Source: a virus
DNA: 64,000 nt
Reading direction: 5' to 3' (one strand)
Virus record (IMG/VR): IMGVR_UViG_3300032893_000001
Coordinates: 1-64,000 of that record
The notes under the pieces: generated by a model
The model's input: the letters and a program-made list of their open reading frames with translations, nothing else
Told to the model about the DNA's origin: nothing
Databases searched by the model: none
Shown: positions 2,670 through 25,155 of the stretch, piece by piece
Position numbering within the stretch: the first letter of the stretch is position 1
Layout of the letters: every line of letters begins with the position of its first letter
Made by a program: the position numbers and the translations under genes

Positions 2670-3623
2670 TCAGACCTTCACCGTGGTCGTTGCGACCGGG
2701 GTTGAATCACATTCTTTCACGTCGGTGCCGGATATGGGAAGGACCGCCCCCTGAAGATTGAGAAAGGTCTTGTTGCCGATACCCGGAGGACGAAGTCCGT
2801 ACGGACCCGTGCGCGCGCGGCGGATGACCACCTGCTGCGCCGGGTTGAGGGGATGCGCCGCCATCGGAAGCGCGTTCGGATCGGGCGCTCCCGGCGCAAA
2901 CGGCCCAGGACGCGTCGTCACCTCGAGGAACGGCGGATTGCCGCCGGCACCAATCGACGGCGCCATCCCAGGACGAATCGGGCACGGCTGCATCATCGAA
3001 AGAGCAAGCTGCACGTTCTGGATGATGCCCGTTGCGAGCGGCGTACGCGCGCTCGTTCGATAGAACTGGTACGGCGACGTCACTGATGTGCAGAACCACT
3101 CGTCAGCACCATCTCCCTCGATGATCGCTCCTGCGGCGCTCGGCGAGCCCACTTGGATGTTGCGTCCGACGTCGTAGAAGCCCTGCTTCATCAGCAGGTC
3201 TCGAAGAAGCCAGATGTGCTCCGCCGTCACCCACGCAAGATGCTCGCTCTCGAGGTCGCTGCGCGAGCAGCAGTTGATGACCATCGTGCCTGGAATCAGC
3301 AACGACTTGATCTTCCGACCCGTGGCGAAGTCGTACTGGTCCATGTCGTCGAAGCCGAGGTGATGGAATCCGATCGGCGCGCGCGTGAAGGTGATGCACG
3401 GGCGCATGTTGAGCGTCTCGACCTTGATCGGCGACTCGGCGGAGATGAAGAGCTCGGTCGATTGGTCGTCCGACTCCCAGTGGTACTGCCCGCGAGGGGC
3501 GGAGTAGAAGAGTCCCTGTACGAACGACACGTACAAGAAGCGCACGTGCTGGAGCGGGTTGTACTTGAAGCTACTCTCCGGCAGCTCCCCGTGCGGCTCG
3601 ACTCTGGGATTCTTCGTAGGCAT
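2670..3623 (-). CDS. Virion structural protein, probable tail terminator/completion protein
   Basis: 317 aa with genome-typical codon use, between the neck genes and the sheath; function inferred from position only. Confidence 0.45.
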   Translation of the reverse strand: MPTKNPRVEPHGELPESSFKYNPLQHVRFLYVSFVQGLFYSAPRGQYHWESDDQSTELFISAESPIKVETLNMRPCITFTRAPIGFHHLGFDDMDQYDFATGRKIKSLLIPGTMVINCCSRSDLESEHLAWVTAEHIWLLRDLLMKQGFYDVGRNIQVGSPSAAGAIIEGDGADEWFCTSVTSPYQFYRTSARTPLATGIIQNVQLALSMMQPCPIRPGMAPSIGAGGNPPFLEVTTRPGPFAPGAPDPNALPMAAHPLNPAQQVVIRRARTGPYGLRPPGIGNKTFLNLQGAVLPISGTDVKECDSTPVATTTVKV

Positions 3624-3951
3624 GGCGCAAGAGCTCCTTGTACTTCTTCATCACCTTGGCGGACTGCACTGCACCTGCCAGACCTCCGAGAACGCCGAGA
3701 GCGGGTGGAAGGTACTCGGTTGGAACCGGGTGCCCGAACAGCCGCTGACTCGCGAGATCTGCACCGTACCCCAATAGCTTACCAGCTCCGTACCCAAGGC
3801 CAGTTCCCGCAGCGATCGTTCCTGCTCCAAGTAGCCCTGCGAGCATCGTGTCCTTCGTAAGAGGAACGCCGGCAGACGGCATCTCCTCCGCGAGCTTCAC
3901 GGGTTCGGGAGCGACCTCGGGCAGGTACTCGAACAGGAACGGAAGGCTCAT
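3571..3951 (-). CDS. Small glycine-zipper protein
   Basis: GLLGAGTIAAGTGLGYGAG and LGVLGGLAGA segments after a VKLA motif; ATGA-coupled to the upstream gene. Confidence 0.6.
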   Translation of the reverse strand: MSLPFLFEYLPEVAPEPVKLAEEMPSAGVPLTKDTMLAGLLGAGTIAAGTGLGYGAGKLLGYGADLASQRLFGHPVPTEYLPPALGVLGGLAGAVQSAKVMKKYKELLRHAYEESQSRAARGAAGE

Positions 3952-4862
3952 TGCCCGAAGTCTCCGGGATTCGGGATGCTGTTTCTGTAGAGCGAGAAGA
4001 TGTTGGGGATCTCCTCTTTCAAGAAGTTCTCGAGGTTCATCGGCATCGTGTAGTTGCGCGGCGGCTCGAAGTAGATGTCCTGAAGTGCCTCGTCGAGCTT
4101 GAGAGGAATCTCGAACTCGATGTCACGCGGAGGCACTTCGTGAAGCTGCACTTCCTGATGCACCGTCGCACGCAGGTGTTCGGTCGAAGAAACAGAAACG
4201 ACGTGCCAGCGGCGGTTCTCGGACTCGATGATCAAGTCACGCGGCTTGAGCGGCGGGTAGTACCCCAAGCGGGCAGTCGTATTCGACTGCTGCTGCGGCC
4301 CGACGTTCGACGTCTGCTCGCTCTTCGCGGAGGGGTCGACCTGCATCCACACCTCGATCGGAGAGAGGTACCCGCGAACGAACCCCGTGTCGTAGCAGCG
4401 CACGCAGCGCGATCGGGTGCGCTTCTTCAACGTCGGACTCCAGCAGTCGCATCGCTGTCCGAACGTGCGTGCAGGAAGAACCCAGCAGCGGCGACCTGCG
4501 TACTCGTGGAAGAGAAGCTGGATGTGCCGTCGGAGCTCGAGAGCAATCAAGTCGGGAGTGGGCTCGAGCGTGACAGGACCGAACGTCTTCGTATCGCCAC
4601 TCGGAACGTGCGTGACGAGAAGCTGGTAGTGCAGCATCCGCCATCGGTCGCCGACGTAGATGGCGTTGTCGATGAAGAAGAATCGATCGCTGAAGGGCTC
4701 GGTCAGCTTGTCGAACGGCCCGCTCGGTGACTCGGAACGAAGAAGCTGGAAGGTGTAGTCGAGGACATCTTCCGACGTGTCTCCGATCGACCACGACACC
4801 TGATTCAGCGCGTTGTCGAGCGACCGAACCAGGAAGTCGTTGATGGTGATCGAGACGGGCAT
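3948..4862 (-). CDS. Neck/head-closure-like protein with Zn-binding insertion
   Basis: GQRCDCW...RCVRCYDTGFVRGY Cys motif followed by PxLKPRDLII...RRWHV, which resembles head-closure beta-barrels; neck-region position. Confidence 0.5.
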   Translation of the reverse strand: MPVSITINDFLVRSLDNALNQVSWSIGDTSEDVLDYTFQLLRSESPSGPFDKLTEPFSDRFFFIDNAIYVGDRWRMLHYQLLVTHVPSGDTKTFGPVTLEPTPDLIALELRRHIQLLFHEYAGRRCWVLPARTFGQRCDCWSPTLKKRTRSRCVRCYDTGFVRGYLSPIEVWMQVDPSAKSEQTSNVGPQQQSNTTARLGYYPPLKPRDLIIESENRRWHVVSVSSTEHLRATVHQEVQLHEVPPRDIEFEIPLKLDEALQDIYFEPPRNYTMPMNLENFLKEEIPNIFSLYRNSIPNPGDFGQ

Positions 4863-4864
4863 CG

Positions 4865-5353
4865 CTACCTTCCAGTAGCCATCTGCGAACGCATCGCAGT
4901 GACCTGCGGAATCGAAGAAGCACGAGGCGCGCTGAGCTGTCCGGACACGGGGCTGCCGAGCTGGCCCGAGTTCATCATGAAGTTGCGGAACGCTTCGTCC
5001 AATCCACCAAAGCGGCGTTGATCGCCGAGGATGCCCTGCGCGAGGGCATGCGGCGCGAAGCCCTCCTGCGTGACCAGCGGGTGCTGTTCGATCATCTGCT
5101 GGTACTGCGCCGGGAGCGACTTGAAGATGCCCTTCTGCTCCTGCACTGACTGCATGGTGAGCTGCGGCGGACGGACGCTCGAGGGCACACTCGAAGGCGC
5201 GTTCGTTCCTGCTGACGCCAGGGTGGGTGACTGCCCCGTGCGCGACGCGTTCCCGCTGACGACGTGCTGTTCGGACTGCGGCACGCGCGAGAGCTGAACG
5301 ACCGAATCGGCTTTGGTGGGCGGACCCGCGGGAGCGAGCTCGCCCGTCAGGCT
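4865..5353 (-). CDS. -1 frame extension of the 5347-6660 protein (track ORF 4865-5284)
   Basis: The frame is open from upstream of a C_CCA_AAA slippery site. The first start codon (GTG 5284) has no SD. Confidence 0.6.
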   Translation of the reverse strand, partial: SLTGELAPAGPPTKADSVVQLSRVPQSEQHVVSGNASRTGQSPTLASAGTNAPSSVPSSVRPPQLTMQSVQEQKGIFKSLPAQYQQMIEQHPLVTQEGFAPHALAQGILGDQRRFGGLDEAFRNFMMNSGQLGSPVSGQLSAPRASSIPQVTAMRSQMATGR

Positions 5354-5371
5354 TTTGGGCTTGCGACTCCT
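5317..5371 (-). other. Programmed -1 ribosomal frameshift signal (SD + C_CCA_AAA + hairpin)
   Basis: AGGAG (5371-5367), in-phase heptamer CCCAAAA (5359-5353), 7-nt spacer, then hairpin GGGCG-A-GCUCGC-UCCC-GCGGGU-C-CGCCC. Confidence 0.65.
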
Positions 5372-9198: not shown

Positions 9199-9699
9199 TC
9201 ACTCGAAGGTGTAGACGACGTGCATGTTGTCGTTGACCGAGTACGCGAAGCCGAAGTACGGCGGCGTCGGCGTGCCATACGGTGTGCCGTAGACCTTGCC
9301 GATCGTGTCGTTGCCGGTGTCGAAGCCGAGAACCGCGTTGGCCGTTCCCGTCTTGTCGATGGTGATGCCGTTCGCCGGCGAGGACTCGACGATGACCAAG
9401 TGGCCTTCGAACTGGCGGACCTTGACGCCCGCGATCGCTCCCTCGATCTGCGACTTGATCTCCTTGAAGAGGAGCTTGCCGCCTGGGTTCGCACCCGCGA
9501 TGAAGGTGCACGTGCCTGCGGGGCCAGGCGCCTTCGTCTTGAAGGTCAGCCCGACGAGCGGAGGGATGTCGCGCTGACCGCCGCCACCCTGAGCGATCGT
9601 CTGCGCGAAGTACGAGACGTCGCCGCCGACAACGGCGCCGTTCAGGAACATGTTGAGCTCGTCGAGCTCGCGGAACTTGTTGACCTTCCAAATCGCCAT
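9199..9699 (-). CDS. Virion structural protein
   Basis: 166 aa, GAGGA RBS, strong GC3 bias, in the head operon. Confidence 0.6.
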   Translation of the reverse strand: MAIWKVNKFRELDELNMFLNGAVVGGDVSYFAQTIAQGGGGQRDIPPLVGLTFKTKAPGPAGTCTFIAGANPGGKLLFKEIKSQIEGAIAGVKVRQFEGHLVIVESSPANGITIDKTGTANAVLGFDTGNDTIGKVYGTPYGTPTPPYFGFAYSVNDNMHVVYTFE

Positions 9700-10922: not shown

Positions 10923-12044
10923 TCAGTACTGGTTGACCTGCGGGAACTGGAGGCCCGTGTCGACGCGGTTGTTGACCGCACCGAGCGCGTCCTCGGCGAC
11001 CGGGATGAAGCTCGAGAGCAGCCCATCCGCGTTGTTCGACGTCGCGTCGGCCGAGTAGAGCTCGAGTTTGCGCACCGCCGCGATGTTGATGATCCCCATA
11101 CCGATGTCCTCCCACGCCTGGAAGGTGATCATGTTGGCGATCTTGTCGATGTAGAACTTCGAGTTGTTCAGGACGTAGAACTTCCCGAAGAACTCCGGGC
11201 GGGTGAAGCAGTACACGTTGCCCGCGCGGAGGATGTCCGTCTTGACCGTGCGGATGTACGCGCGGCCGAGCAGCGTGTTGTACTTGTACCCGTCGACCGC
11301 CGTCTCCGACTGGAGGCGATCGCCGAAGTCCTCGACCGTCCACTGAAGGAGGTCGTCCCAGTCGACTTCCGTCATCAGGACGCGCTCCGAGCGGAGGCGG
11401 TTGCCGTCGAGCAACTTGAAGAGGTTGACGAGGTCCGGGCGCTGGATCGGGCGCACGGTCGCGTCGTTCTTGCCGGCGTTGCGCGCGAGCTCGCCCTTGC
11501 GGACGGAGAACTCGACGACGGCGCCCGCGTTGATGTTCGACCAGTTCAGCGAGGTGATCGTGCCGCCGTTCGCTTCCTGCTGGAGCGCTTGGACGGCCGC
11601 CTCGATGTTGATCGTGAACTCGCGGTCCTCGATCTCCTGGATGTCCTTCACCGAGTTGTCCTCGATGATCTTGGTGATGGGCATCTCGTAGGCGAGAAGC
11701 TCCTGCTCCGTCTTCTGGAACATCTCCGAGGAGATGGTGAAGAAGGCGACCTCGGCCTTCGCACCGCGGATGAAGCGGGCGGTGGGCTGACCGCGGAACG
11801 AGATCGAGAGCGCGCGGCTCTGCGGCTCGACGTCCACGATCTTGACGAGGGTGTCGTGGTTGACGCTGCGCTGGCAGTCGGCGCGGGTGACCTGCTCGGG
11901 AGGAAGAACTTTCCTCGCGTAGGACACTTCGCGGAGACGATCACGGACGTACGAACCGCCGTACTCTGCGATCTTCTCCTTGCCTTCCTGCGTGCCCAGC
12001 TTCTGGGTGAACAGGTCGTTGAGGACTCGTGCGGGGACACTCAT
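10923..12044 (-). CDS. Major capsid protein (HK97-type)
   Basis: 373 aa with very strong codon bias and a purine-rich RBS; follows protease/scaffold/decoration genes and is followed by a terminator; N-terminal EKIA motif. Confidence 0.8.
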   Translation of the reverse strand: MSVPARVLNDLFTQKLGTQEGKEKIAEYGGSYVRDRLREVSYARKVLPPEQVTRADCQRSVNHDTLVKIVDVEPQSRALSISFRGQPTARFIRGAKAEVAFFTISSEMFQKTEQELLAYEMPITKIIEDNSVKDIQEIEDREFTINIEAAVQALQQEANGGTITSLNWSNINAGAVVEFSVRKGELARNAGKNDATVRPIQRPDLVNLFKLLDGNRLRSERVLMTEVDWDDLLQWTVEDFGDRLQSETAVDGYKYNTLLGRAYIRTVKTDILRAGNVYCFTRPEFFGKFYVLNNSKFYIDKIANMITFQAWEDIGMGIINIAAVRKLELYSADATSNNADGLLSSFIPVAEDALGAVNNRVDTGLQFPQVNQY

Positions 12045-12649: not shown

Positions 12650-13003
12650 TCAGCCGCCCGTGAGGAACGACTCCAAGTCGGAGCCGCCCACGTGAGACTG
12701 GTTGTCGTTGGTGAGCGAAGCGAGCTTCCGTCCCATGTCGGGACCGACGAGGTTCACTGCGTTCTTGATCTCCCCGAGCTTGCCGCTTTCGGCCATCTTC
12801 TCGAGGTTCGTCACGAGTTGCTCGAAGGGCTCGTTGCTGATGCCCTTGCTCTGCATCTCGTGAGCGACTTTCTCCGCCTCCGCACGGCGCTCGTACTGAG
12901 CGACCTTCGTGCGAAGCTCGTCGCGCTCGGCCGTGACCGAACGCAGCGCGGTGGCAGCGTCGTTGAGGACTTCTGCGACCTTGTCGTGGCTGATCTTCTC
13001 CAT
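12650..13003 (-). CDS. Small coiled-coil scaffold-like protein
   Basis: 117 aa; EKIS, DKVA, EKVA, EKMA, RKLA motifs. Confidence 0.65.
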   Translation of the reverse strand: MEKISHDKVAEVLNDAATALRSVTAERDELRTKVAQYERRAEAEKVAHEMQSKGISNEPFEQLVTNLEKMAESGKLGEIKNAVNLVGPDMGRKLASLTNDNQSHVGGSDLESFLTGG

Positions 13004-13013: not shown

Positions 13014-14279
13014 TCACGCCGTCGGGTTGGTCTGCTCGTCGAGCAGGGTCTCGAGGAGAGCGCGCGCAGCCGCGACCTTCACGCCGCCGTTCGCACTGCC
13101 GAACTTGGTGCCCGCCTGCGCGGTGCTGTCGAACGCCGCGCGGAGCGTGCTGTCGGTCTGCGACGACAGAGCCGGCTCGTCGAGCCACTTCTTCATGTCG
13201 CTCTTCGGACCAGACTTGGCCTGCCCCTTGGTGTAGTTGATGGCCGCCTGGTTCGAGCCGACGAGCTCGGTGTTCGGACCGGGCTTGCCGCCGGCGGGCG
13301 CGCCGCCCGCTTCACCCGCAGCGCTGGTCTCCGGCGGAACGGCGGGACCCGCCGAGATGTGCGCCGGGTTGATCGCGTCCTCGGCCTTCTTGCTGATGCC
13401 GAGGCGCGCGAGGTTGCCTTCGAGGAGAGCAGACGCCTTCTTCTCGGGCTTGCACTCGCACGCGGTCTTGTCCTTGCCGCACTTCTCGCACTTCTCCGCG
13501 GCGACCTTCTTCAGGCCGAGGCGCGCGAGGTTGCTCTCGAGCAGATCTGCCGAGGCCACCTTCTGCGGGGTGTGCCCCGGCGTCGAGTGGTGCTCGTTCG
13601 TCTCGAGCGCGTTGGCAGCCTGATCCGACGGGCGCACCTTCTCGGTGCCCGGCTTGTGCGGCGGCTGCTGATGCGCCTGACCCTTGTGGTCCGGAAGCGA
13701 CGTCGATGCGGTCGCGTGCGACACCTCGAGCGCACCGGGTCCCTTGCCGGGAGCCTGGATGTGCTCGGTGATGTGCGCCGGCGGCGCGGCGCTGGCCGCG
13801 CTCTTGTGGAACTCGCTCGCGAGGAACTCGAGAGCGCCGGCGAGCTTGTCGACGTACTCCGTCGGCACCGACATCTCTTGCTCCAGTGCGCTCGCGGTCT
13901 TCTCCCCCGAGAGGTTCTCCGCCTGACGACGGGCCTCTTCGCTGATGCGCGCACGGGAGATGGAGCCAGCCTGCGCTGCCTTGACCAGGTCCTGAAGCGA
14001 CGGTTTCGATGCCATCCCTGTTCCGTTCATGATTGACCCGTACTTTGGTGGTAGCGACTTCTGAGAGACTGCGCCAGCATCAGGTGCTGGCATCGAGCCC
14101 GAGTTCACTCGGGTGAAGTTGTTCCGATGGGCCATTCCAGTTGGCCCCCGCTTCCCCGGCGCAAGTCGCGAGACGATCTGCGGCTGCGGAAGCGGAGAAG
14201 ATCCCGCTGCGGACAGGAGTGAGCCTCCCGAGGATTCCCCCTCGGCTTGCTTGCGCATGGCTGCACTCCCATCCCACAA
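13014..14279 (-). CDS. Low-complexity scaffold/inner-head protein
   Basis: Ala/Gly/Pro-rich; about ten K-x-A motifs; duplicated LLExNLARLG segment; AAGGAG RBS. Start uncertain. Confidence 0.65.
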   Translation of the reverse strand: MWDGSAAMRKQAEGESSGGSLLSAAGSSPLPQPQIVSRLAPGKRGPTGMAHRNNFTRVNSGSMPAPDAGAVSQKSLPPKYGSIMNGTGMASKPSLQDLVKAAQAGSISRARISEEARRQAENLSGEKTASALEQEMSVPTEYVDKLAGALEFLASEFHKSAASAAPPAHITEHIQAPGKGPGALEVSHATASTSLPDHKGQAHQQPPHKPGTEKVRPSDQAANALETNEHHSTPGHTPQKVASADLLESNLARLGLKKVAAEKCEKCGKDKTACECKPEKKASALLEGNLARLGISKKAEDAINPAHISAGPAVPPETSAAGEAGGAPAGGKPGPNTELVGSNQAAINYTKGQAKSGPKSDMKKWLDEPALSSQTDSTLRAAFDSTAQAGTKFGSANGGVKVAAARALLETLLDEQTNPTA

Positions 14280-14292: not shown

Positions 14293-15096
14293 TCAGCCCT
14301 TGGGCTGCTCCCAGGTCACGGGGTAACCCGCCGCCTCGAGGAGCTCGAGAGCGCGGATCTCCTTGGCCTGCGGGAACTCGGTGGCGGCGGCCACCTTGCT
14401 GTTGTCCTCGTTGAAGCCGAGGGTGAGGACCGCCGACACGCGCGCGGTCGCCTCGTCGCGATCGAAACCGGCCGAGGCCGCTTTCTCGATGGCGAAGGCG
14501 GCAGAGACTTGGGTGAGCGCCGAAGGCGACGCCTTCTTGCTCACGGAGGCTTTCTTCTCCTCCTTCTTCTCTTCCTTCTTCTCCTCGTCCTTCTTCTCTT
14601 CCTTCTCGCCGCCGCCGTCCTTCTTGCCGAGCGCGGCCGCGAGCTGCGGCGGCATCGCCGCCTCTTTCGAGCCCAGGAAGTCGAAGCCGCCTTCGGAGGC
14701 GATCTTGCGGAGCTCCGCCACGTAGGCGTGCGCCATCTGACGACCGAAGAAGTCGGCCTCGGCGAACTTCGCCTGCGCTTCCTTGGTCTGGAGCCACTCG
14801 TTCATCGCCTGCGCCTCGGCCTTCTTCTCGCCGTGGTGCTTGTGGCCGTGCTGCGCAGCCTTCTTGTCCTTGTGCGCGTGGCCGTGCTCTTTCTTCTCTT
14901 CCTCGCCCGCCGTCTTGGCGAACGTGGCGTTCCAGAGCTCGGTGATCTGGCTGTCGTTCAGCGTGCTCAGGTCGATGCCGTTCTCGGCGGCCATCTTCGC
15001 GAAGAGCTCGGCTTGAGCGACCTTCTCGGCGTCAGCGGTCTGCTGAGGCTGGGTCGTGCCGTACGCGTGCGCGAGGTATTCGTGCATCCCACTCAT
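14293..15096 (-). CDS. Scaffold-like inner-head protein
   Basis: 267 aa; about a dozen K-x-A motifs, K/E tract, His-rich patch; ATGA-coupled to the protease gene. Confidence 0.7.
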   Translation of the reverse strand: MSGMHEYLAHAYGTTQPQQTADAEKVAQAELFAKMAAENGIDLSTLNDSQITELWNATFAKTAGEEEKKEHGHAHKDKKAAQHGHKHHGEKKAEAQAMNEWLQTKEAQAKFAEADFFGRQMAHAYVAELRKIASEGGFDFLGSKEAAMPPQLAAALGKKDGGGEKEEKKDEEKKEEKKEEKKASVSKKASPSALTQVSAAFAIEKAASAGFDRDEATARVSAVLTLGFNEDNSKVAAATEFPQAKEIRALELLEAAGYPVTWEQPKG

Positions 15097-16832
15097 GAGT
15101 GGACTCCTTCATCGAGGGTTGGTGAGTTCCACGTGTTCCTCGAGGGGAGTCCCCTCTCCACGCCGGCGTTCGCCTGTTTGGAGTGGCCGACCTCGTCCAA
15201 GAACGCGTTCTTGAGATAGGCAGCCGACAAGGATGTGAATAGCTCGTTCACGTGGGCCTGTGCAAGTTTCTTGAGACTACCGTCGGAAAGACCGGAGCGA
15301 TCGATCATGTCCTGCACTTCAGGAACGAGATGAAGAATCGCTTGGCGATAGCCGTTGTACGCACTCCCAATCTTACGCAGCAGATCTGACGAATGGGAAG
15401 AATCTGTTTTTCGGGCTACCGGCGACCCCTTCCCAATGATGACCAAAACCCGCTTCTCGATGGCAGGTCCGAAGGCAGATCGATCGGAAAGAAGCGGGAG
15501 AAGCAGCTTCGCGAGCGCGGAGTGAAAGAGGTCGGAACGAAGGGAAACGGGGTCCGTTTCTTCGCTCTTTGGAAAGACGACTCCACGTTGCTCGAGATCG
15601 TCCGCGACGTCTTTTTGACCTCCGCGAACGAGGATGATCCGCTGGAACTCCTTCGGTCGAAGAACCATACCGAGCCCAGTGGTCGTAGAGAGCGCTTCAC
15701 CAAGCGGACGCGACGCAAGCGCATCGAGCACCTCCTCGGGTAGATCCGGCTCGTGACGAGTGAGCAGCGGAACAGCCTTGCCAGCGAACTGCGAGGGGAC
15801 CGTGTCTTTCACGATCTCGCTCTTCTTCAGCTTCGCGGCTTTCCCGAGGAAGGCCATCTTGAACGCGTCTTCTTCAGAAGCGCTCGCAGTCTTTTCTTCT
15901 TGTTCGTCTTCTTCGACGTACCCGAGCTTCTCTGCGATTTCCGCTGAGGGCAACGACCACAATTTGCTCTCGCCGTCGGCGATCTTCATCATCACCTTCG
16001 CCGTCTTGTCGGCACCGATGAAGACGAAGCTGATGTCGAAGAACTTCGGGTAGTCGTTGTAGACGAAGACCTTTCGTCCGTCGGACAAGATCTTGTTCAT
16101 CGAGCCGCGCGCGTGCTCGCAGTAGTCGGCGCGCGTGATCGACAAGCCGCGGATGCCCTTGCCGTTCTTCGCCTTGAGCTGCTTGTGAACCTCGAGGATT
16201 GCCTCTCCGGGCGTACGATGACGATCCTTCTTGAACGTCGCCATCGCCTTTCGGTACGCCTCCCAGTCGAGGCAGATCGAACACGTATCGAAGGGAACCT
16301 TGCAGCCCATCGAAACGTCCGGGAAGTGTCCGGCCTTGAGTTTGTCCCAGACGCCCGTACCGCCGAACTGGTCGCACTTGTCCTTGTCGACGCGGGTGAC
16401 CAATTCGACGCGCTTCATCCGGTTGTTCCAGAGAGCGAGCTCGACTTCTCCGAAGGCGCGCGTCGCGTCCTTGTTCCGATGGTGCGCGTACGGGTGCGCC
16501 AAGTAGAACGTCGGGTAGCCGTAGCCCCACGTCTTGGCCTTCTCGCGATCAAGCAGCGGATTGCCGCTCCAGTCATCCGGAGCGTGGATGAGCGCAGCCT
16601 CGGGGAAGTAGTCGCCGTTGACGTTCGAGCCCCAGAACTCGCCAGCACCCATCGCGTTCAGCAGAACGTACTGCGCGTCGCTGCGTGGACGAAGCGTGTG
16701 GATGTAACGAACGACTTCCGGCAACAAGTCAGGAGACGCGACCTTCTCGAGGTACTCATCGGCACGCGTGAACAGCGGGATCGCCGCTGGCCCGTACGCC
16801 GCATGACTCGAGAAGAAGCTCGTCTTGATCAT
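15093..16832 (-). CDS. Capsid maturation (prohead) protease, HK97/herpes assemblin-like fold
   Basis: NxNGDxF, HHRN (candidate catalytic His), DVSMG (candidate catalytic Ser), CSIC Zn insert and FFDISFVFIGAD; lies upstream of scaffold and capsid genes. Confidence 0.8.
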   Translation of the reverse strand: MIKTSFFSSHAAYGPAAIPLFTRADEYLEKVASPDLLPEVVRYIHTLRPRSDAQYVLLNAMGAGEFWGSNVNGDYFPEAALIHAPDDWSGNPLLDREKAKTWGYGYPTFYLAHPYAHHRNKDATRAFGEVELALWNNRMKRVELVTRVDKDKCDQFGGTGVWDKLKAGHFPDVSMGCKVPFDTCSICLDWEAYRKAMATFKKDRHRTPGEAILEVHKQLKAKNGKGIRGLSITRADYCEHARGSMNKILSDGRKVFVYNDYPKFFDISFVFIGADKTAKVMMKIADGESKLWSLPSAEIAEKLGYVEEDEQEEKTASASEEDAFKMAFLGKAAKLKKSEIVKDTVPSQFAGKAVPLLTRHEPDLPEEVLDALASRPLGEALSTTTGLGMVLRPKEFQRIILVRGGQKDVADDLEQRGVVFPKSEETDPVSLRSDLFHSALAKLLLPLLSDRSAFGPAIEKRVLVIIGKGSPVARKTDSSHSSDLLRKIGSAYNGYRQAILHLVPEVQDMIDRSGLSDGSLKKLAQAHVNELFTSLSAAYLKNAFLDEVGHSKQANAGVERGLPSRNTWNSPTLDEGVHS

Positions 16833-17419
16833 TCGCGGCCGGACGGCACGTGGAAGTACTCGCTTCCGCCACGACCGTGCTCTCCTTCCGGGCGACGACG
16901 GGTAGCTTGCTGCTGCTCCCGCATGTGCGCCTTGGTGCCCTCCATCACGCCGCCGCCGGCGCTGTGAAGAAAGGCTTCGCCGATCTCCGACTCGGGAAGA
17001 GCCTTGCGGTGCGACAGCGCTTCGATGAGCGCGCCACCAGCGCTGTCCGGGCGCAACATCATCATGCGGCGCATGTACGTACCCGCGATCATCGGGTCCT
17101 TGGTGAACTCCGGATTGATCGTGCGCAGAGAGCTGAAGGACTCGTTGAACTCCTTCGGGCGCGTCGCCAGGAACTCGTGCAGGTCCGCGTTGAATGAAGA
17201 TCCCATCATCGCTCGGAAGTCACGACCCTTGGTGACTGCATCCCAAATCTTCGAAGCGGCGACGCCAGCACCTGCGATCGCGGCGCCGGCGACGGCGGTT
17301 CCCGCACCGGTTGCGGCCGCTCGACCGACCTGCTGCCCGAATCCACGAAGACCATCGAGCGGACCCGCCGCCGTCTTCGTCCCGTGCTTCTCCGCCAAGT
17401 ACTTCTCGAGAGGGTTCAT
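16829..17419 (-). CDS. Glycine-zipper inner-head protein
   Basis: TKTA motif followed by GAGTAVAGAAIAGAGVAA. Confidence 0.65.
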   Translation of the reverse strand: MNPLEKYLAEKHGTKTAAGPLDGLRGFGQQVGRAAATGAGTAVAGAAIAGAGVAASKIWDAVTKGRDFRAMMGSSFNADLHEFLATRPKEFNESFSSLRTINPEFTKDPMIAGTYMRRMMMLRPDSAGGALIEALSHRKALPESEIGEAFLHSAGGGVMEGTKAHMREQQQATRRRPEGEHGRGGSEYFHVPSGRE

Positions 17420-17425: not shown

Positions 17426-18733
17426 TCAGTAGCCCATGGGGAAGGGGTAGCCGCTGTACTGGTACGCGAGCTCTTGGCTCTTTTGCTGATACTCCGGCGT
17501 GCCGGGAATGAACGACTTCAGTGTCTGGCCGACAGGAGAAGCGCCGAGCGCAGAGAGGTGCTGCGCGCCGCGGACCGCAGCGAGTCCACCGATAGCGTGC
17601 GGAATATGCGTGACCGCTCCGCCAGCGATTCTGCCCATGGTCTCGGCCGCGGAGCTTCCGGGGCCGAAAAGCAGGTCGCCCACGGCCCTACCGCCTTTTC
17701 CCACGAGCTTTCCGCCCTCCTCGAAGGTGTCAACCACACTTCGAAGCAGGCCAGGACGCGGCATTTTCGGTGCGGCCTCCTTCACGCCAGCGATCTCCGC
17801 CAGCTTGTCGTAGAAGGCCGAAACGCGCTCCGGCGTCGCCTTGCGCAAGAAGCTCACGGTCTCGTCCAACGCGAGCTTGGTCTGCTCTCGGGTCTCGCGG
17901 ACCGCCGCGAGCTTGTCGAGCGTCTCGCAGAACTCGGTCATCGTCACGACGAGCGGATGCTGCTCGTTGACCATCCGGTGCTCGCTGGCGGTCTTGCTGA
18001 TCGAGTCGTCGACGTCGATGAGGGTGCGGAAGACCTCCTCCTGCACGAGGCGCGGTCCGATCATCTCGAATGCCGTCTTGACATAGAGGGGGTCAGCGAC
18101 GAACGGCGCCCACGCCTGAACCACCTCCCCGAGCGTCGTGCCCGACATGGCCGCCTGCTTGACGTGCCCGTAGAGCTGCTCCGCGAGGTCCATGTACATG
18201 CCCTCGAGACCGCTGAGGACCGACGTCTCGTGCTCGTAGAGCGACGCAAGCTTGTCCTTCAGCTCGATCACTTCCCCGAACGGGTTGTGCTGCACCATCG
18301 CCGCTTCGGGGCGAGAGAGTGCCGAAGCGAATGCCTCTTCGGCTGCGGCCGACGCGACCTTCGTCTCCGCCGGAGGTGACGCGTAGTCGAGCATCCCACG
18401 GTCGTAAGTCGACCCACCTCCGCCATCGTTCAGGTCCTGAAGGACCGCGGCCGGATCTGCCGGGCCGCCCTGGAACTCGATGACGCGATGGGGCGAGCCT
18501 TCTTTCTTGAACTCGGTCAAGTACGCGGTCGTGTTGGCGAACTCGACGACGCGACGAACTTGCTCCGGAGAAAGCCCCGCGTGCTTGACGGTCTCGACCA
18601 CTGCTTGCGTCAGGTCACCGTCGCCGCGCGTGTAGAGATCGGCTGCTTTCTTGCCGAAAGCTTCGAGCTCTTCTCCCGAAATCGGACGAGCGTGCGATTG
18701 TTGAAGGAGGCTCTGAAACGGAAGGTCGTGCAT
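17426..18733 (-). CDS. Inner-head protein with K-x-A motifs and C-terminal Gly-rich tail
   Basis: 435 aa; KKA, KHA, KVA, KLA (x3), KQA, KTA (x2), KEA. Confidence 0.7.
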   Translation of the reverse strand: MHDLPFQSLLQQSHARPISGEELEAFGKKAADLYTRGDGDLTQAVVETVKHAGLSPEQVRRVVEFANTTAYLTEFKKEGSPHRVIEFQGGPADPAAVLQDLNDGGGGSTYDRGMLDYASPPAETKVASAAAEEAFASALSRPEAAMVQHNPFGEVIELKDKLASLYEHETSVLSGLEGMYMDLAEQLYGHVKQAAMSGTTLGEVVQAWAPFVADPLYVKTAFEMIGPRLVQEEVFRTLIDVDDSISKTASEHRMVNEQHPLVVTMTEFCETLDKLAAVRETREQTKLALDETVSFLRKATPERVSAFYDKLAEIAGVKEAAPKMPRPGLLRSVVDTFEEGGKLVGKGGRAVGDLLFGPGSSAAETMGRIAGGAVTHIPHAIGGLAAVRGAQHLSALGASPVGQTLKSFIPGTPEYQQKSQELAYQYSGYPFPMGY

Positions 18734-18768: not shown

Positions 18769-19515
18769 ATGGGCTCTTCGAGCAAGGGAAGGCAACGAAC
18801 CGACGACGACCTGCTGACCAAAAAAGAGGCAGCCGAGCACCTCGGGGTTTCGAACGCGATCATTCGCCGCCTGGTCTCTCAAGGCGTTCTCGAGGTCGTA
18901 CAGGTTCGTGGCAAGCAGTACTTCTACCTCTCCGACGTGAACGCAGCCGCGCACGTTCTCTCGCGTGGGATCAACGTCGTCACCGCCAACCAAAATGCGC
19001 TGCGAGCTCTGGCGGGGATCAGCCGGCTCGAGCGACGTCTCAACGACATCGCCTTCGTTTTCGGAACGCGGTACGACACTCCGCCGTTGAACGAAGATCG
19101 TGTTCTGAAGACGTGGGAGAAAGTACACGAGTCCTTGCACCTTCGCTTCGACGCCTTGACCGCCTCCGAAGTGATGGAGTGGGCGCGCTTCTTCTACGAG
19201 ATCGACACCGGATTCCTTTTCCTGGCGAGCCACGTCCTCGAGACGGATGAGCCCTGGGAGCCGTTTGTGCAGCTCGCGAATCTCATTCGAAGGAACGCGC
19301 CCGAGTACCCGCTGCCCGAAGTGCGTGTCGCCTACAACTACTTCGCGGCTGCTGCTCGCTTCATGGAGAACTGCGCCTACCTGCACTGCCGACAAGCCAA
19401 GGGGCCGCGAAAAGCAGACCGGATTTTTCCGACCGTCGATGGCGACCTCGTCAGCTCCTTGCTCAGCCTGATTCACCTTGCCGACAGCAAGGACCCGAAG
19501 TCCGCCGTGCACTAG
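18769..19515 (+). CDS. Helix-turn-helix (excisionase/MerR-like) DNA-binding protein
   Basis: LLTKKEAAEHLGVSNAIIRRLVSQGVL...YFYLSDV N-terminal HTH; AAGGA RBS. Confidence 0.75.
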   Translation: MGSSSKGRQRTDDDLLTKKEAAEHLGVSNAIIRRLVSQGVLEVVQVRGKQYFYLSDVNAAAHVLSRGINVVTANQNALRALAGISRLERRLNDIAFVFGTRYDTPPLNEDRVLKTWEKVHESLHLRFDALTASEVMEWARFFYEIDTGFLFLASHVLETDEPWEPFVQLANLIRRNAPEYPLPEVRVAYNYFAAAARFMENCAYLHCRQAKGPRKADRIFPTVDGDLVSSLLSLIHLADSKDPKSAVH

Positions 19516-21308
19516 CCCTGATTCACCGGGCCAGAGTAGACCGACATCATCGGCCCGCGGTTCTGATCTTCACGCAGCGGCGCGATGATGTCGGGACGCG
19601 GGAACTTGATGCACGAGGCGAGGAAGCAGTAGAGCAGGGAGTGGAAAGAGTCGTCCGGCCTGTCGGGGCCGTGGTCGTACTGGATCATTCGGAGCGTCTC
19701 GTTGTACTCCGAGTGGATGTTGCACATGTCCTGCGCGAACGGCTGCTTGAACTCCTCCCAGCGAGGAAACTCGAAGACGTTGCTGCGCTTGATCGCGTTG
19801 AAGATGTCGCTCATCACCTCGGTACGAAAGACCTTGTAGCGGCGCAACTTCGCGTCGAACTCGACCTTGCGCTTGGCACGCGCCATGTACTGAAACTTCG
19901 CAAGACGGTTCGGACCAAACTTGCGGGTGAGGTGGTCGTTGCGGTCGAAGCCGCCACCGTAGTCGGCGCCGATGATGAGCACACGGAAGTCGTTCAAGAT
20001 CTCATCGAGCGTACGAAGCTGGAGCTGCGGATCGAGCTCGACGCCCGTGAAACGATGCATGTAGATGACGCGGAACTTCATGTTTACGTACGTGCCGAGT
20101 GTCAGCACGGTGTACGTGTTCTCGCCCGTACCCCAATCGAGACCGGCGAAGACTGGATTGTCGACGGCCTTCTCCTTGTACTTCTCGAGAGTGTCCGGAT
20201 GCATCGTGATGTCCGACCGGCAGCACGCCTGCACCTGCGCCATCGTGAGCGGTCGCATGCCTGAGTCGTACGAGAGCCCGAGAACCTCGTTGTAGAACTT
20301 GTCACGAGGATAGCGCTCGTAGTCGAGAAGAATCTCTTCCCACGGCTTCCACGGAACCATGAGCTGCGGAATGCGGTAGCTCTCGAACGGCGCGTTCTCG
20401 ACCTGCCCCGCCCAGACCGCATCTGGATGCTGCGCGTAGATCTGGCCTCCGCACTTCTCGCAGATGAGGCTCGTCCTGCCGATGTTTCGTTCACCGAGGA
20501 TGTTCCAGTAGCGACCACCTTCTCCTCCGTGATGATCGCACGGAACCATCCACTCGCCCTGTGTCGACTGCTGCGCGCGGTAGTACTCGATGTTGTTGTC
20601 GAGACTCTTCGGAGTACCGGCGTAGACGAACTGCCGCCATCGCTTGGGTGCGTGACCCGTGCACTGCTCGATGACAGGAACGTTGTCCGAGAGAATGTCC
20701 TGGAACTCGTCGAGCAGTAGCATCCATGCAGGGATACCGCGGGTGCGGTCTGCGTTGAGGAAGGCGTTGCGCAACGTGATCTTCGACCAGTTGCTGAACT
20801 GCTTCTCGAAGACGTTCTGCGAGAGTGCACGGTTAGTGAAGCCACGCAGAATGTCGCTGGTCTCGATCGGCTCCTTCAGACGATCTGTCGAGAACGTCTT
20901 GGTCTGCGTCGACGTCGGGGAGACGTAGAGGACCTTGAAAGAGGGGACCAGGCAGCAGTACGCGATCGCGCGGTTGCCAAGAAGAGTGGACTTCTCGACC
21001 TGACGGCCCGTGCAGAGAAGGATGCGTCGCGACGACGTGTCGTACGGCATTCGAAGATGACGCCGGCCTTCGAAGGAGAAGTTCTTGAAGCCGGGAAGAC
21101 CATCCTCCCGAGGCATGCGAAAGGCCGCCTCGGTGAACTGGGAAATCGTGACGGACAGACGTCGATCGACAGGCCCCTTCTTCTCGAGTCCATCGAAGAT
21201 GTTTTCGACGACTACAGGCTCCGCAAAGAAGGCAGCCTCCTCGGCGCTGTCATCGAGCGGGTCCTCGTCGACGCTCGGCTCCGACTGCTCTACAGTCTCA
21301 TCAACCAA
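19512..21308 (-). CDS. terL: Terminase large subunit (gpA-like)
   Basis: Walker A-like TGRQVEKS, Walker B LLLDEFQD, motif III GTP, RNase H-type GLDWG and DDSFH; TTG start with GGAGG RBS. Confidence 0.9.
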   Translation of the reverse strand: MVDETVEQSEPSVDEDPLDDSAEEAAFFAEPVVVENIFDGLEKKGPVDRRLSVTISQFTEAAFRMPREDGLPGFKNFSFEGRRHLRMPYDTSSRRILLCTGRQVEKSTLLGNRAIAYCCLVPSFKVLYVSPTSTQTKTFSTDRLKEPIETSDILRGFTNRALSQNVFEKQFSNWSKITLRNAFLNADRTRGIPAWMLLLDEFQDILSDNVPVIEQCTGHAPKRWRQFVYAGTPKSLDNNIEYYRAQQSTQGEWMVPCDHHGGEGGRYWNILGERNIGRTSLICEKCGGQIYAQHPDAVWAGQVENAPFESYRIPQLMVPWKPWEEILLDYERYPRDKFYNEVLGLSYDSGMRPLTMAQVQACCRSDITMHPDTLEKYKEKAVDNPVFAGLDWGTGENTYTVLTLGTYVNMKFRVIYMHRFTGVELDPQLQLRTLDEILNDFRVLIIGADYGGGFDRNDHLTRKFGPNRLAKFQYMARAKRKVEFDAKLRRYKVFRTEVMSDIFNAIKRSNVFEFPRWEEFKQPFAQDMCNIHSEYNETLRMIQYDHGPDRPDDSFHSLLYCFLASCIKFPRPDIIAPLREDQNRGPMMSVYSGPVNQG

Positions 21309-21981: not shown

Positions 21982-22912
21982 GGGGATCTTTCTCCGTCAC
22001 GACAGACGCAAGATCCACCGTATGCTCTCCGTTGCTGACTGCCAAGACGTACGGCATCTTCTGCGTGTCGGTGCGAAGAGTGATCGCCTCGAGCTGCGCT
22101 CGCAGGCTGTCCTCCGGACGCTCTTTCTGCTCGTTGAGCTCACCGAGCATCTTGATGCTGTGCGTCCAGTTGAGCGCGCGACGGTCCGCATCCGGAACGC
22201 GCGAGATGGATTCCTCGTAGACACGGAGAATCATCATCGCGCGCGAGTACGACATCGCGGTGCTGATGTCGATATTGGCAGGCATCATGCCCAAGGAGAT
22301 CTGCCCAAGCAACGCAGAGAAGTGCGAGCGCGGCGTGTTGGCAGCAATCCAACGCGGGTCGCTGTAAAGACTCGAGCTCAACGCCTTGCCCTGCAACTCG
22401 ATCTCTTTGTTGCTGCTCTCCTTGGCGCGCAGGTAGCGAAGCTTGATGATGCCGCGGAGCTCCGTCGTGTCGACGAGCCGCACGTCCCAGTAGAACCAGC
22501 GGTACCGCTCGACCGCCGCGGGCGTCGCGTCGGGAACGTAGTAGTAGCGTCGAAGCTGATCTGCGATGGCGTTCGCAGGCGCTTCGAAGATGAGCGCTAC
22601 CTCGATGAACTCCTTGGCGCGCGCGTTATCGAGGATGGAGTACATCGGGGCCATCTCTCGAGGATCTCCTTGGAAGAGCTCGAGGACGCCTGCATCTCGT
22701 ACCAAGTTGAACGAGTCGCAGTGCCGCCTGCTCCTCGGGTTGAACCCGTCCGGCAGTGCATTGAACTGCTGACGGAGGCCATTCAGGTACGCGTCGCCGA
22801 GGCAGTCGAGCCCTTGAGCTTCGAGGATTCCGCGGATCTCGGCGTTGTCTCGTTCGGGGTTGTCGAGGAGCAGGTAGCGGATGTACCGCTCGCAAGGGCT
22901 GTGTCGGATCAT
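21974..22912 (-). CDS. Hypothetical protein, possible terminase small subunit
   Basis: 312-aa helical protein two genes upstream of terL; function is positional inference. Confidence 0.5.
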   Translation of the reverse strand: MIRHSPCERYIRYLLLDNPERDNAEIRGILEAQGLDCLGDAYLNGLRQQFNALPDGFNPRSRRHCDSFNLVRDAGVLELFQGDPREMAPMYSILDNARAKEFIEVALIFEAPANAIADQLRRYYYVPDATPAAVERYRWFYWDVRLVDTTELRGIIKLRYLRAKESSNKEIELQGKALSSSLYSDPRWIAANTPRSHFSALLGQISLGMMPANIDISTAMSYSRAMMILRVYEESISRVPDADRRALNWTHSIKMLGELNEQKERPEDSLRAQLEAITLRTDTQKMPYVLAVSNGEHTVDLASVVTEKDPHE

Positions 22913-25155
22913 TACTCTTTGTTGAAGGCCACGACGTTGAGGCCCTCGATGGTGTTCTCGAGACCGCGGATCGCGCGCTCGAGAGCGTTCGCGGGCAACT
23001 CACGCATGCCCAAACGCGCCGCGATCAAGAGCTCGCAGAGCTTGTTCTGCGTCTCGTCGAGCTGCGGCAGATAGGTGACGAAGGTCATCATGTTCTCTGG
23101 GTTGATGAACCCGAGGCTGAGAACGTTGTCGACGGCTGCCGGGTCCGGAATGCTCGCGGCTTCCTTCACCAGGTTCTGGCGAAGATTCGGCAGCTTCTGA
23201 AGAACGTCGTGCGCCTTCTTCAACATCGCGGCCTTCACTTCCTCCGCCGGTTCGAGGACGCGGCTCACGCTGACCTCGATCGGCTCTTGGAATTGAATCG
23301 CCTCACCGACCTTCTGAATGGCGTACTGCGGGTCGACGCCGAGGCCGCTCAGCACGAACATGACTTGATCGATGTCGATGAAGCTGCGTTCGTCCGAAGC
23401 GATCTTCTCGACGGGCGCGCCCGAGATGTCGAAGACGTTGCTGCCGCCCGCGCGCACCCACACACTGCCCACTGCGGACGCGTGCGCTTCTTTGCTGAAC
23501 TGCTCGGGATGCTCAGCCAAGGACACCGCCTCGGTCTGCTCGAGAGGAAGCCAGCGGAAGCTGTCCGGAACGACGACGTGATCTTCGTCGGCCATCGTGA
23601 TGCGCTGCACTCCAGGCTGGACGACGATCGCCACCTGGCGACCATCCATCGTCTCGGCCATGAGCTCCGCGCCTTCTTCAGGCGAGGTGACGCTCGTGGT
23701 GATCGTGAGAGGCACCGTCGCCTGCGCCGCACCATTCGGCAAGACCTGGTAGAACACGCCGTGCCCACGAGGACGGCCTTCCATCAGGCTGGCACCGTCG
23801 GCGACGCGGATACCTGCGATCTCCCCCTGCACGACCGAGTGCGAGCCGTTGGTGAAGAGGGTCATCGGCAGAGGCATGCCGTCGAGATCGAGCAGGTTCG
23901 GGAAGCAGAAGCCCACGAGCTGCTTGCCGTCGTCGGTCTGCACCCGGTAGATGCCGTAGTCCTTGACGAGCTCCGGGCGATCGGCCTCCGGCGCGTCAGA
24001 ACCGATGGCAGCCTCGTCCGCCATGGTGATCGAGCCGTGCTTGTCGATGAGCATGGCACCGTCGAGACCAACGAGCTCGACGACTTGTCCGCGATCGAGT
24101 GCGCGCTCCGTGGGCTGCCACATCTTGTGACTCGCCGTCTTGATGGTGTACCCACCGCCGCTCGCTCTGGAGATCTGCACCGCTGAGGGATGGATGGCTG
24201 CCGCCAGCTTCTCCCCACGCGCCTTCAGATCTTGCGGCACGTACCCGGCGAGAACGGAGATCGCGGCTTGCGTTGCAGTCTTGTTCAGCGCGAACGCAGC
24301 TTTGGTACGCGGCTCGGTGACCTCCGAGAGGAACCGGTTGAAATCCTGCTCGTTGATGGTGGGCAGGATGGTCGCAAGAATCGAAGCCGCTTTCGGCATC
24401 ACCGACGTCGCGCGCTGGGCAGCGATGTTGGCTCCCGTCAGGTACTTCTGTCCCTTCGCAGCCGCGGCTCCGCCTTCCTGAACGAGCTGAGCGCCGCGCC
24501 CCATCATCGACTTCGAGGCACGAGCGAGCGCCTGCGGGGCTTTCTGCTGCTTCAGGTACGAACCGATGGTACTCGGGTTGAGCGCCGTCTTCTCCGCCGC
24601 GGTCTTCATGCCGCCGCACTTCTCCTTGGCAGCTCCCTCTTTGCCCATGCCGGCGGTCATCACCGCGCCGCCGCCACCGAAGCCGTAGTTCTGACGGTAC
24701 GGCGGGTAGAGCTGGGAGATCATCGACTGGTCGCCCGGCGTGCGGCTCGTCACGTCGAAGAGCTGCGGGCGGAAGAGCGACTGGCGAAGACGACGCTCGG
24801 TGAGCGGCAGCATCTTCGACTGCTCGGTGATGAGAACGTCGAAGGGCTGGAGCTTGCCCTCCTTGATGATGATCGGAATGCGAACGTTGCGAACGCCCGC
24901 CGCCTGCATCATCGGAGATCCCTGCTCGCCTTGGATCTCGGTCTTGTTGCTCACTTCGATGTGACCGAAGCCGAAGCGCTGCTCTGCGTCGACGCGGTCC
25001 ATGACGACGTCCGGCATGAAATCCGCGACGTACGGTACCTGCTTGTAGAGCTCCTGAAGAATCTCCGTCGGCCACTCCGCGGGGTCTTCGGGAAGCATTA
25101 CCTCCGCGGTGGCGGTCTTCTGGAAATCGATTCGAGAGTCGAGAAACAGCTCCAT
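22912..25155 (-). CDS. Large head-associated protein with K-x-A motifs
   Basis: Start reassigned to ATG 25155 (GGAGAG RBS); QKTA, MKTA, EKTA, NKTA, IKTA, EKLA, SKEA, EKIA, VKEA. Confidence 0.7.
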   Translation of the reverse strand: MELFLDSRIDFQKTATAEVMLPEDPAEWPTEILQELYKQVPYVADFMPDVVMDRVDAEQRFGFGHIEVSNKTEIQGEQGSPMMQAAGVRNVRIPIIIKEGKLQPFDVLITEQSKMLPLTERRLRQSLFRPQLFDVTSRTPGDQSMISQLYPPYRQNYGFGGGGAVMTAGMGKEGAAKEKCGGMKTAAEKTALNPSTIGSYLKQQKAPQALARASKSMMGRGAQLVQEGGAAAAKGQKYLTGANIAAQRATSVMPKAASILATILPTINEQDFNRFLSEVTEPRTKAAFALNKTATQAAISVLAGYVPQDLKARGEKLAAAIHPSAVQISRASGGGYTIKTASHKMWQPTERALDRGQVVELVGLDGAMLIDKHGSITMADEAAIGSDAPEADRPELVKDYGIYRVQTDDGKQLVGFCFPNLLDLDGMPLPMTLFTNGSHSVVQGEIAGIRVADGASLMEGRPRGHGVFYQVLPNGAAQATVPLTITTSVTSPEEGAELMAETMDGRQVAIVVQPGVQRITMADEDHVVVPDSFRWLPLEQTEAVSLAEHPEQFSKEAHASAVGSVWVRAGGSNVFDISGAPVEKIASDERSFIDIDQVMFVLSGLGVDPQYAIQKVGEAIQFQEPIEVSVSRVLEPAEEVKAAMLKKAHDVLQKLPNLRQNLVKEAASIPDPAAVDNVLSLGFINPENMMTFVTYLPQLDETQNKLCELLIAARLGMRELPANALERAIRGLENTIEGLNVVAFNKE

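Follow-up and report, generated by a model that had tools for sequence, protein, structure and literature searches.

A K-x-A motif in the head module of an uncultured phage as the predicted cut site of a divergent prohead protease

What does a three-residue motif do when it recurs many times over in the head proteins of a virus? This question is raised by the first 64 kb of the IMG/VR virus record IMGVR_UViG_3300032893_000001 (the window hereafter, positions 1 to 64,000 of a single-contig genome of 184,953 bp, ~62% GC, rated complete by CheckV), in which the head genes lie on the minus strand. A sequence-only reading, made without database searches, had noted that Lys-x-Ala (K-x-A, x being any residue) is dense in nine open reading frames (ORFs) of this region, and had proposed that a protease encoded at 15093-16832 cuts after it. 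We have followed up this proposal with composition-corrected statistics, orthologue conservation and structural modelling. By analogy with characterised proteases of the same fold we infer both the cleavage and the bond, and consider it likely that K-x-A is the cut site of a divergent head-maturation protease of the T4 gp21/assemblin fold, which would cut after Ala. ORFs are named below by their first coordinate, and lie on the minus strand unless stated.

Excess and conservation of K-x-A in the head module

As background we used the whole genome, in which 237 genes were called by codon-usage score. The expected number of K-x-A was taken for each protein from its own Lys and Ala content with 2000 shuffles, and genome-wide from a Poisson model over the 237 genes, whilst an unbiased pattern scan covered 1600 gapped dipeptides (a-b, a-x-b, a-xx-b and a-xxx-b, spacings 0-3). 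The head module as a whole contains 111 K-x-A where 53.5 are expected (z 7.9), so that the enrichment survives the correction for composition, and the motif stands at the top of the 1600 patterns; the runner-up is CxxC (z 5.2, with 4 occurrences), and the next a-x-b pattern reaches z 3.7. In the rest of the genome the observed/expected ratio (O/E) of K-x-A is ~1.07 and the motif is not among the top patterns. The raw counts are those that the sequence-only reading had claimed (7 in 5347, 10 in 6657, 6 in 12650, 11 in 13014, 14 in 14293, 10 in 15093, 12 in 17426, 13 in 22912 and 11 in 42465), and seven of its nine ORFs stay enriched after correction, whereas 5347 and 6657 do not. With 43394, the corrected excess comprises eight proteins (12650, 13014, 14293, 15093, 17426, 22912, 42465 and 43394), at O/E 2.1-6.6. 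The longer K-x-A-S is found 18 times in these eight (~3000 residues) versus 14 times in the other ~50,000 residues, and six of the seven genes with the lowest p genome-wide fall in the two head clusters, the seventh being 63148. The motif is thus over-represented both in scaffold- or core-type proteins and in the protease itself, as multi-site prohead processing would have it. As had also been claimed, it is not dense in the large terminase (19512-21308; 0 vs 1.4 expected), in the portal protein (38640-40691, a weak match; 2 vs 2.5), or in the single-chain beta-beta' RNA polymerase (27207-33593, 2128 residues, assigned through phrog_25354, phrog_24349 and RNA polymerase beta families; 12 vs 12.7).

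Could the excess simply follow from helical or coiled-coil sequence rich in Ala, Lys and Glu, or from the shared ancestry of repeats, with no specific function? Several carriers are Lys/Ala-rich and probably helical, with weak coiled-coil matches, and at 63148-66969 (1273 residues; 63148-64000 in the window) a count of 19 vs 7.1 is indeed a repeat artefact, which led us to reject this protein as part of the system. On the other hand, the expectation is already built on the composition of each protein, and there is no excess of the related patterns A-x-K, K-A, K-xx-A, K-xxx-A, R-x-A, K-x-S or K-x-G. Relatives speak to the same point. In two sets of 80 IMG/VR loci, one surrounding the protease gene and the other the portal gene, orthologue-summed K-x-A reaches O/E 2.1-4.4 in eight families (n=18-80); the A-x-K, R-x-A, K-x-S and K-x-G controls show no enrichment in six of them (12650, 13014, 14293, 15093, 17426 and 22912), and in the 42465 and 43394 families A-x-K, the one control run, stands at 0.47 and 1.74. 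Among 400 a-x-b patterns, K-x-A comes first in 59 of the 61 loci with five or more of the families. In the alignments 29 sites are at least 70% conserved, many of them at 85-99% while their flanks are 20-45% identical, and the Lys and Ala of the motif are conserved far more strongly than those elsewhere in the same proteins (for Lys in 17426, 0.62 vs 0.24). Where the alignments break down the positions of the sites shift and their density persists, across ~40%-identical orthologues and across phages of different GC: two cultured phages, Salmonella phage Arash and Vibrio phage D69 (lower GC, ~30% identity in the protease), have the same K-x-A excess in syntenic genes. Shared ancestry alone is insufficient to explain this, because the conservation of the sites exceeds that of their flanks, that of the motif Lys and Ala exceeds that of the others, the density outlasts the drift in position, and Arash and D69 share the excess. 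We regard an origin as a compositional by-product as very improbable.

The protein set aside above contains a 20-residue repeat (V-T-D-x-x-A-R-D-K-Q-A-F-R-A-V-S-D-T-A; ..ARDKQAFRAVSDTA..) in at least 14 tandem copies, which account for its K-x-A excess, and it could be a fibre or surface protein.

Lined up, the 29 conserved sites give the motif a fuller shape. Naming positions as protease subsites, with Ala at P1, P5 is L/F/I/V/M in 61%, P4 is E/V/D, P3 is Lys, replaced mainly by Arg, P2 is L/T/V/Q, P1 is Ala, replaced by Ser, Gly or Cys, and P1' is S/A/E in 64%. The fuller motif is hydrophobic-x-K-x-A-(S/A), and almost all sites in Arash and D69 have this form. As a positive control the same statistic was run on T4 gp22 and gp21: L-x-E ranks first in gp22, and [LI]-x-E occurs 16 times vs 5.7 expected in gp22 (O/E 2.8) and 7 vs 2.6 in gp21 (O/E 2.7), so that the effect size seen here equals that of an experimentally known cleavage motif. 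Our literature search found neither a K-x-A specificity nor this protease family described. What appears new is thus the predicted hydrophobic-x-K-x-A↓S/A specificity (the arrow marking the predicted cut), the recognition of a very large unannotated family of putative proteases, and a mapped set of predicted substrates.

The candidate protease and its own sites

The gene at 15093-16832 encodes a protein of 579 residues, which its fold and a conserved His and Ser predict to be a prohead protease with a helical, scaffold-like C-terminal domain. It has no Pfam (E<=0.1), PHROG or PDB sequence match, phmmer and profile searches against the PDB giving spurious designed-repeat matches only, and the profiles PF03420 (Peptidase_S77) and PF04586 (Peptidase_S78) match nothing anywhere in the genome; the protein is therefore not to be filed under Pfam S77 or S78, and is better described as a separate family with the same fold. 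S77, S78, ClpP and S49 proteases were looked for elsewhere in the CheckV-complete genome and none was found, which leaves the 15093 product as the sole candidate prohead protease. Its gene sits within the head-morphogenesis module near the scaffold-type and major capsid genes, and the order large terminase, protease, Lys/Ala-rich 14293-15096 and major capsid protein (10923-12044, identified by phrog_2522 and the Arash capsid protein) is kept across the 80 loci.

A full-length AlphaFold2 (AF2) model was poor (predicted local distance difference test score, pLDDT, 56), its fold search giving a Z of just 4.3 to T4 gp21, and was replaced by a model of the first 300 residues made with an alignment of 56 homologues that are 40-71% identical. 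This N-domain model (pLDDT 88.9; predicted TM score 0.84) has a disordered leader of low pLDDT at residues 1-33, followed at residues 35-285 (nt 15978-16730) by a protease fold of the assemblin type (MEROPS clan SH). Its closest structural matches are the protease of varicella-zoster virus (VZV; 1vzv_A, Z 9.5), T4 gp21 (5jbl_A, Z 9.0, with 131 of 165 residues aligned at a root-mean-square deviation of 2.8) and the protease of human cytomegalovirus (HCMV; 8j3s_A, Z 7.0), the next unrelated chain in the exhaustive comparison standing at Z 5.1. Nearly all rows of a Foldseek search against the PDB are likewise herpes proteases and T4 gp21, and against BFVD there are 99 matches at E<=1e-3, many of them annotated prohead protease or COG3740, with phage G gp19 and proteins of phiRSL1 and PaBG among them. 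The shared fold proposed by the sequence-only reading is thus borne out, as is its choice of the Ser in VSMG.

Conservation singles out H117/H118 (nt 16479-16484) and S174 in DVSMG (nt 16305-16319) as candidate catalytic residues: H118 and S174 are invariant among the 56 homologues, H117 is at least 90% conserved, and Ser follows His by 56-57 residues versus 55 in T4, within the ~50-70 looked for. A non-significant hhalign alignment, used for residue line-up only, has H..N-x-D-P and P-x-V-S in common with T4 gp21, placing N120-x-D122 on T4 N90-x-D92 and S174 on T4 Ser140. For the third catalytic residue the candidates are four further invariant positions, D182, D189, H216 and D266. Some 50 homologues carry inteins, exactly at HH (116-117) and at VSMG-C / DT-CSIC (176-184), and this clustering marks these residues as the functional core. 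The family is large: there are >1600 close metagenome homologues, many on contigs of 170-200 kb, and a profile-free search of 1.8 billion representatives matched 2337 clusters at 50% identity. Inteins are unusual in a capsid protease, and here a single homologue may have up to three (e.g. P0068, P0092, P0101, P0134 and P0137), at residues ~75, 116-117, 176-184 and ~238, some with Hint and LAGLIDADG domains (PF14528, PF13403, PF14890).

The protease is itself rich in K-x-A (10 vs 4.5 expected; orthologue O/E 2.2, n=80), and three of its sites lie where self-processing would be looked for. K30-V-A32 (LEKVA↓SP; 16737..16745), at the boundary of leader and fold, is the predicted N-terminal self-cleavage site. 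K-x-A is present here in 97% of the 80 orthologues, with flanks 50% identical, the 56-sequence alignment has both K30 and A32 conserved at 90% or more, and the proteases of Arash (LTKQA↓AA) and D69 (LEKSA↓AA) have a site in the same place. K314-T-A316 (EEKTA↓SA; 15885..15893) lies in a variable linker that follows the protease domain, within an unstructured low-pLDDT stretch of the full-length model; 95% of orthologues keep K-x-A amid gap-rich flanks of 21% identity, and we predict that a cut here would release the protease from its C-terminal domain, as an analogue of the herpes R site. K522-L-A524 (LKKLA↓QA; 15261..15269), ~55 residues from the C-terminus, is kept in 81% of orthologues versus 26% flank identity and may correspond to the herpes M site.

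Predicted substrates, leaders and gene setting

Which proteins would such a protease cut? The proteins richest in sites are Lys/Ala-rich and adjoin the protease, and cutting at all sites would leave peptides of 1-40 residues and a few intact domains. Directly downstream lies 14293..15096, a Lys/Ala-rich protein of 267 residues that is a probable scaffold or core protein (14 vs 5.9; orthologue O/E 2.15, n=64). Conservation is 81-98% at its sites K25, K34, K61, K110 and K234, with flanks of 25-60%; its predicted fragments are 1-37 residues long, and the syntenic genes share the excess (Arash gp223, 8 vs 3.0; D69, 10 vs 2.9). Next to it, 13014..14279 encodes 421 residues with 11 K-x-A (vs 5.3, p 0.01; orthologue O/E 2.08, n=68), of which K100, K145 and K297 are 88-97% conserved. 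The probable coiled-coil protein of 117 residues at 12650..13003, known from weak coiled-coil family matches only, has 6 vs 0.9 (z 5.8; orthologue O/E 4.4, n=70), with K45 and K69 at 96-97% and predicted fragments of 10-25 residues. On the far side of the protease, 17426..18733 (435 residues) has 12 K-x-A in its first 320 residues and none in its C-terminal 115; with 12 vs 2.5 it has the lowest p of the 237 genes (1.3e-5) and an orthologue O/E of 3.9 (n=71), seven of its sites are 85-97% conserved with flanks at 27-52%, and Arash gp220 (10 vs 3.0) and D69 0268 (11 vs 3.9) follow suit. The 752-residue head-module product of 22912..25170, for which we found no family match and no usable protein-atlas match, has 13 sites (vs 4.1; orthologue O/E 3.2, n=48; K344, K589 and K669 at 94-98%) clustered between predicted intact blocks of 171, 216 and 81 residues. 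Two further proteins have uncertain starts: 42465..43397 (~310 residues, longest ORF to 43724), with 10-11 K-x-A, the count of 10 standing against 2.95 expected (orthologue O/E 3.6, n=54, median identity 41%), and 43394..43927 (~177 residues, longest ORF to 44389), with 6 vs 1.6 (orthologue O/E 3.7, n=18).

A second class of proteins has a single site near the N-terminus, and the four that the sequence-only reading had picked out are all present. In the major capsid protein, K24-I-A26 (KEKIA↓EY; 11967..11975) predicts the removal of a 26-residue propeptide. K-x-A occurs in the N-terminal region in 67 of 67 orthologues, and the capsid proteins of Arash and D69 read GL[VT]KEA↓GAAMS, with the motif at residues 27-29. 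The 196-residue Gly/Ala-rich protein at 16829..17419 has one K-x-A (K15-T-A17) after a short leader; 53 of 56 orthologues have K-x-A within the region aligned to residues 1-45, with drift in both position and sequence, and the same N-terminal count in the terminase, 12087, 9707 and 21974 families is 1-2 of ~70. By the portal gene, the 325-residue Gly-rich protein at 40688..41665 has a leader ending ...FADELKKLA↓R (K18); its orthologues average 0.8 sites per protein, their bodies being depleted (O/E 0.32). The fourth, a Gly-rich protein of 126 residues at 3571..3951, has its single K-x-A (K19-L-A21) after a short leader and is described here from sequence only. Short leaders ending in K-x-A also occur elsewhere in the genome, in the sigma-factor gene and its neighbours, and the sigma-factor site K-T-A-A recurs in the single orthologue found. 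The leader of a 1035-residue protein (138890-141997) was rejected as a conserved site, since five relatives have K-x-V there, and related-locus searches with the sigma gene or this protein as query gave no match. To say that the motif marks which proteins are packaged, as the sequence-only reading did, goes too far: a cut site alone does not decide packaging. The short N-terminal leaders alone could play that role.

The leaders raise another possibility, namely that K-x-A is a short linear motif for docking or assembly, binding core and scaffold proteins to the capsid interior, to the portal or to each other, and is not cut at all. Conservation and enrichment by themselves indicate function and not proteolysis, and leaders such as F-x-DEL-x-K-x-A on several proteins do resemble targeting sequences. 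Yet the sites flank the catalytic domain of the protease and lie in disordered variable linkers and at the capsid N-terminus, which is how self-processing and propeptide removal look; the signature equals the T4 control in size; the replacements at Lys and Ala fit the chemistry of protease subsites; and a leader may be address and cut site at once, as in T4. Docking without cleavage is, in our view, unlikely.

Several observations stand beside these. The products of 3571-3951, 16829-17419 and 40688-41665 have a common layout, a K-x-A-ended leader and then long Gly/Ala-rich hydrophobic stretches of glycine-zipper type, and may be head-borne membrane-active proteins. K-x-A is scarcer than expected in the large terminase, across 74 orthologues (79 vs 143 expected, O/E 0.55) as well as in the window, and likewise in the 9199-9699 family (18 vs 35); together with the 40688-41665 body, this depletion may reflect selection against accidental cutting. 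The sole plus-strand gene within the minus-strand head block, 18769-19515, abuts the large terminase gene and encodes an N-terminal helix-turn-helix of MerR/excisionase type; its product also weakly resembles small terminase subunits (phrog_57), which makes it a candidate for that subunit. The gene at 2166-2669, on the border of the structural block, encodes an HNH / endonuclease VII-like nuclease (phrog_1035, E 2e-15). Genome-wide, C-x-x-C occurs 59 times vs 10.2 expected (z 15), and the genome therefore encodes many small zinc-ribbon-type proteins.

Known systems and the bond that is cut

The strategy predicted here, one prohead protease and a short motif, would be that of T4, phiKZ and the herpesviruses. 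T4 gp21 (MEROPS S77; PDB 5JBL) processes gp22, gp23, gp24, gp67, gp68 and internal proteins. Besides the fold, it shares with the 15093 product a gene that adjoins those for scaffold and capsid, and a P3-x-P1 motif over-represented to the same degree in scaffold and protease (T4 O/E ~2.7). The two differ in that the 15093 product has no detectable profile membership (PF03420, hhalign), a larger catalytic domain (~250 residues) with a Cys-rich insert (CSIC...C), and a fused helical C-terminal domain of ~290 residues, and in that the predicted P3 and P1 are Lys and Ala here and Leu/Ile and Glu in T4. The herpesvirus assemblins (MEROPS S21; VZV 1VZV, HCMV, Kaposi's sarcoma-associated herpesvirus, pseudorabies virus pUL26N) provide the best structural match, combine a protease with a scaffold-like C-terminal part, have conserved sites just after the protease domain and near the C-terminus (R and M), and cut after Ala and before Ser at V/L-x-A↓S, much as we predict for Ala and a following Ser or Ala. 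They differ in P3, which is hydrophobic there and Lys here (the hydrophobic position being P5), whilst the substrates and the sites per substrate predicted here are far more numerous, and sequence identity is just 13-14%. In phiKZ gp175 and SPN3US gp245, cleavage at S/A/G-x-E has been shown by mass spectrometry (PMC5694885, PMC10052503). As predicted here, one protease acts there on many head and internal proteins at a short motif, and a C-terminal extension is removed by self-cleavage; their motif has Glu at P1, however, and phiKZ belongs to another lineage, this phage having a single-chain RNA polymerase in place of the split phiKZ-type polymerases.

The motif being established and not the bond, could the same protease recognise K-x-A and cut elsewhere, for instance after Lys, so that Ala and the next Ser/Ala are P2' and P3'? 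The HK97 protease does cut after a Lys, and Lys is the most constrained residue of the motif, replaced mainly by Arg. Nevertheless, the characterised T4, phiKZ and herpes specificities all place the cut after the last motif residue, the Ala gives way to Ser, Gly and Cys, small residues as expected for a small S1 pocket, and Ser or Ala follows it as in herpes sites. A bond other than that after Ala is quite unlikely, we believe.

Closer relatives exist. Arash gp222 and D69 VPHD69_0270 are true homologues at 30-33% identity (E 1e-31 to 1e-34) within a shared gene order, with hydrophobic-x-K-x-A-(S/A) sites in the same neighbouring genes and at the capsid N-terminus; they are shorter (471-491 residues) and annotated as structural or hypothetical, neither as a protease. 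We found no published cleavage analysis for either phage (PMC10585845). Further away, the unannotated gp19 of Bacillus phage G (9719-10621) is homologous to the protease domain (tblastn 2e-11; Foldseek 1.6e-15), its gene is situated between those of the portal and capsid proteins, and K-I-A, K-T-A and K-I-A stand in the first 55 residues of gp19. K-x-A is found at 8 vs 2.4 in gp19 and 7 vs 2.8 in gp21, whereas the capsid protein lacks a site. The specificity may extend to phage G, but we treat this weak signal as suggestive and do not count it as support.

Taken together, we favour cleavage after Ala by a divergent T4 gp21/assemblin-fold protease as the probable function of K-x-A. Within the assembled prohead, the 15093-16832 protease would recognise hydrophobic(P5)-x-Lys(P3)-x-Ala(P1) and cut after Ala, before Ser/Ala; it would release itself at K30-V-A32 and K314-T-A316, remove the 26-residue capsid propeptide, clip the short leaders of several small Gly-rich proteins, and reduce six to eight scaffold/core-type proteins (12650, 13014, 14293, 17426, 22912, 42465, 43394) to short peptides and the few domains that survive. 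We prefer cleavage as a reading because the best-conserved sites sit where self-processing by a capsid protease would have them, at the leader/fold junction (K30), in a disordered linker (K314), near the C-terminus (K522) and at capsid residues 24-26. In the characterised members of this fold, recognition rests on P3 and P1 (T4 L/I-x-E↓, phiKZ S/A/G-x-E↓, herpes V/L-x-A↓S), a scheme into which K-x-A fits, and the Ser/Ala after the motif Ala recalls the A↓S of herpes sites. The system is not the polyprotein that the sequence-only reading had named, since its carriers are encoded by separate genes, with products predicted to be cut many times as is T4 gp22.

Several findings weigh against cleavage after Ala and should be set beside it. 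ORFs 5347 (7 vs 4.6, p 0.14) and 6657 (10 vs 7.1, p 0.16) are not enriched by the shuffles. The RNA polymerase, which we take to be packaged in relatives, shows no K-x-A depletion at the counts given above. K-x-A also occurs at K276 and K283 inside the folded protease domain and at K301 in the capsid body, where it is probably uncut. The profile comparison with T4 gp21 has an hhalign probability of 0.1%, and the Foldseek E-values against the PDB are weak (0.07-0.5). The Arash virion study, finally, was searched fully tryptic: the homologues gp220-gp226 were detected with 85-100% coverage, which neither shows nor excludes cutting.

A bolder version, which we put forward tentatively and think rather doubtful, is that the motif would be address and cut site in one. 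Leaders of the form hydrophobic-x-(D/E)-E-L-x-K-x-A would deliver a defined cargo (the sigma factor, the small Gly-rich membrane-active proteins and the core proteins) into the prohead and would then be clipped, and Ala↓Ser would single out this very large uncultured clade (>2300 clusters at 50% identity) as the lineage of phage proteases that is mechanistically closest to the assemblins.

The combination of a gapped-dipeptide scan, orthologue conservation and a T4 positive control is an approach that can be reused for uncultured phages. Here, it gives a function and a predicted specificity to a family that is abundant in metagenomes and represented in neither Pfam nor PHROGs. From the motif one can predict the processed head proteins and their cut positions, where the mature capsid protein would begin, and the likely scaffold and core components; such predictions should aid structural and proteomic work on this orphan lineage. 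If true, the predicted Ala↓Ser prohead protease would be the closest functional parallel so far to the specificity of the assemblins, a parallel that would bear on the shared ancestry of capsid assembly in tailed phages and herpesviruses.

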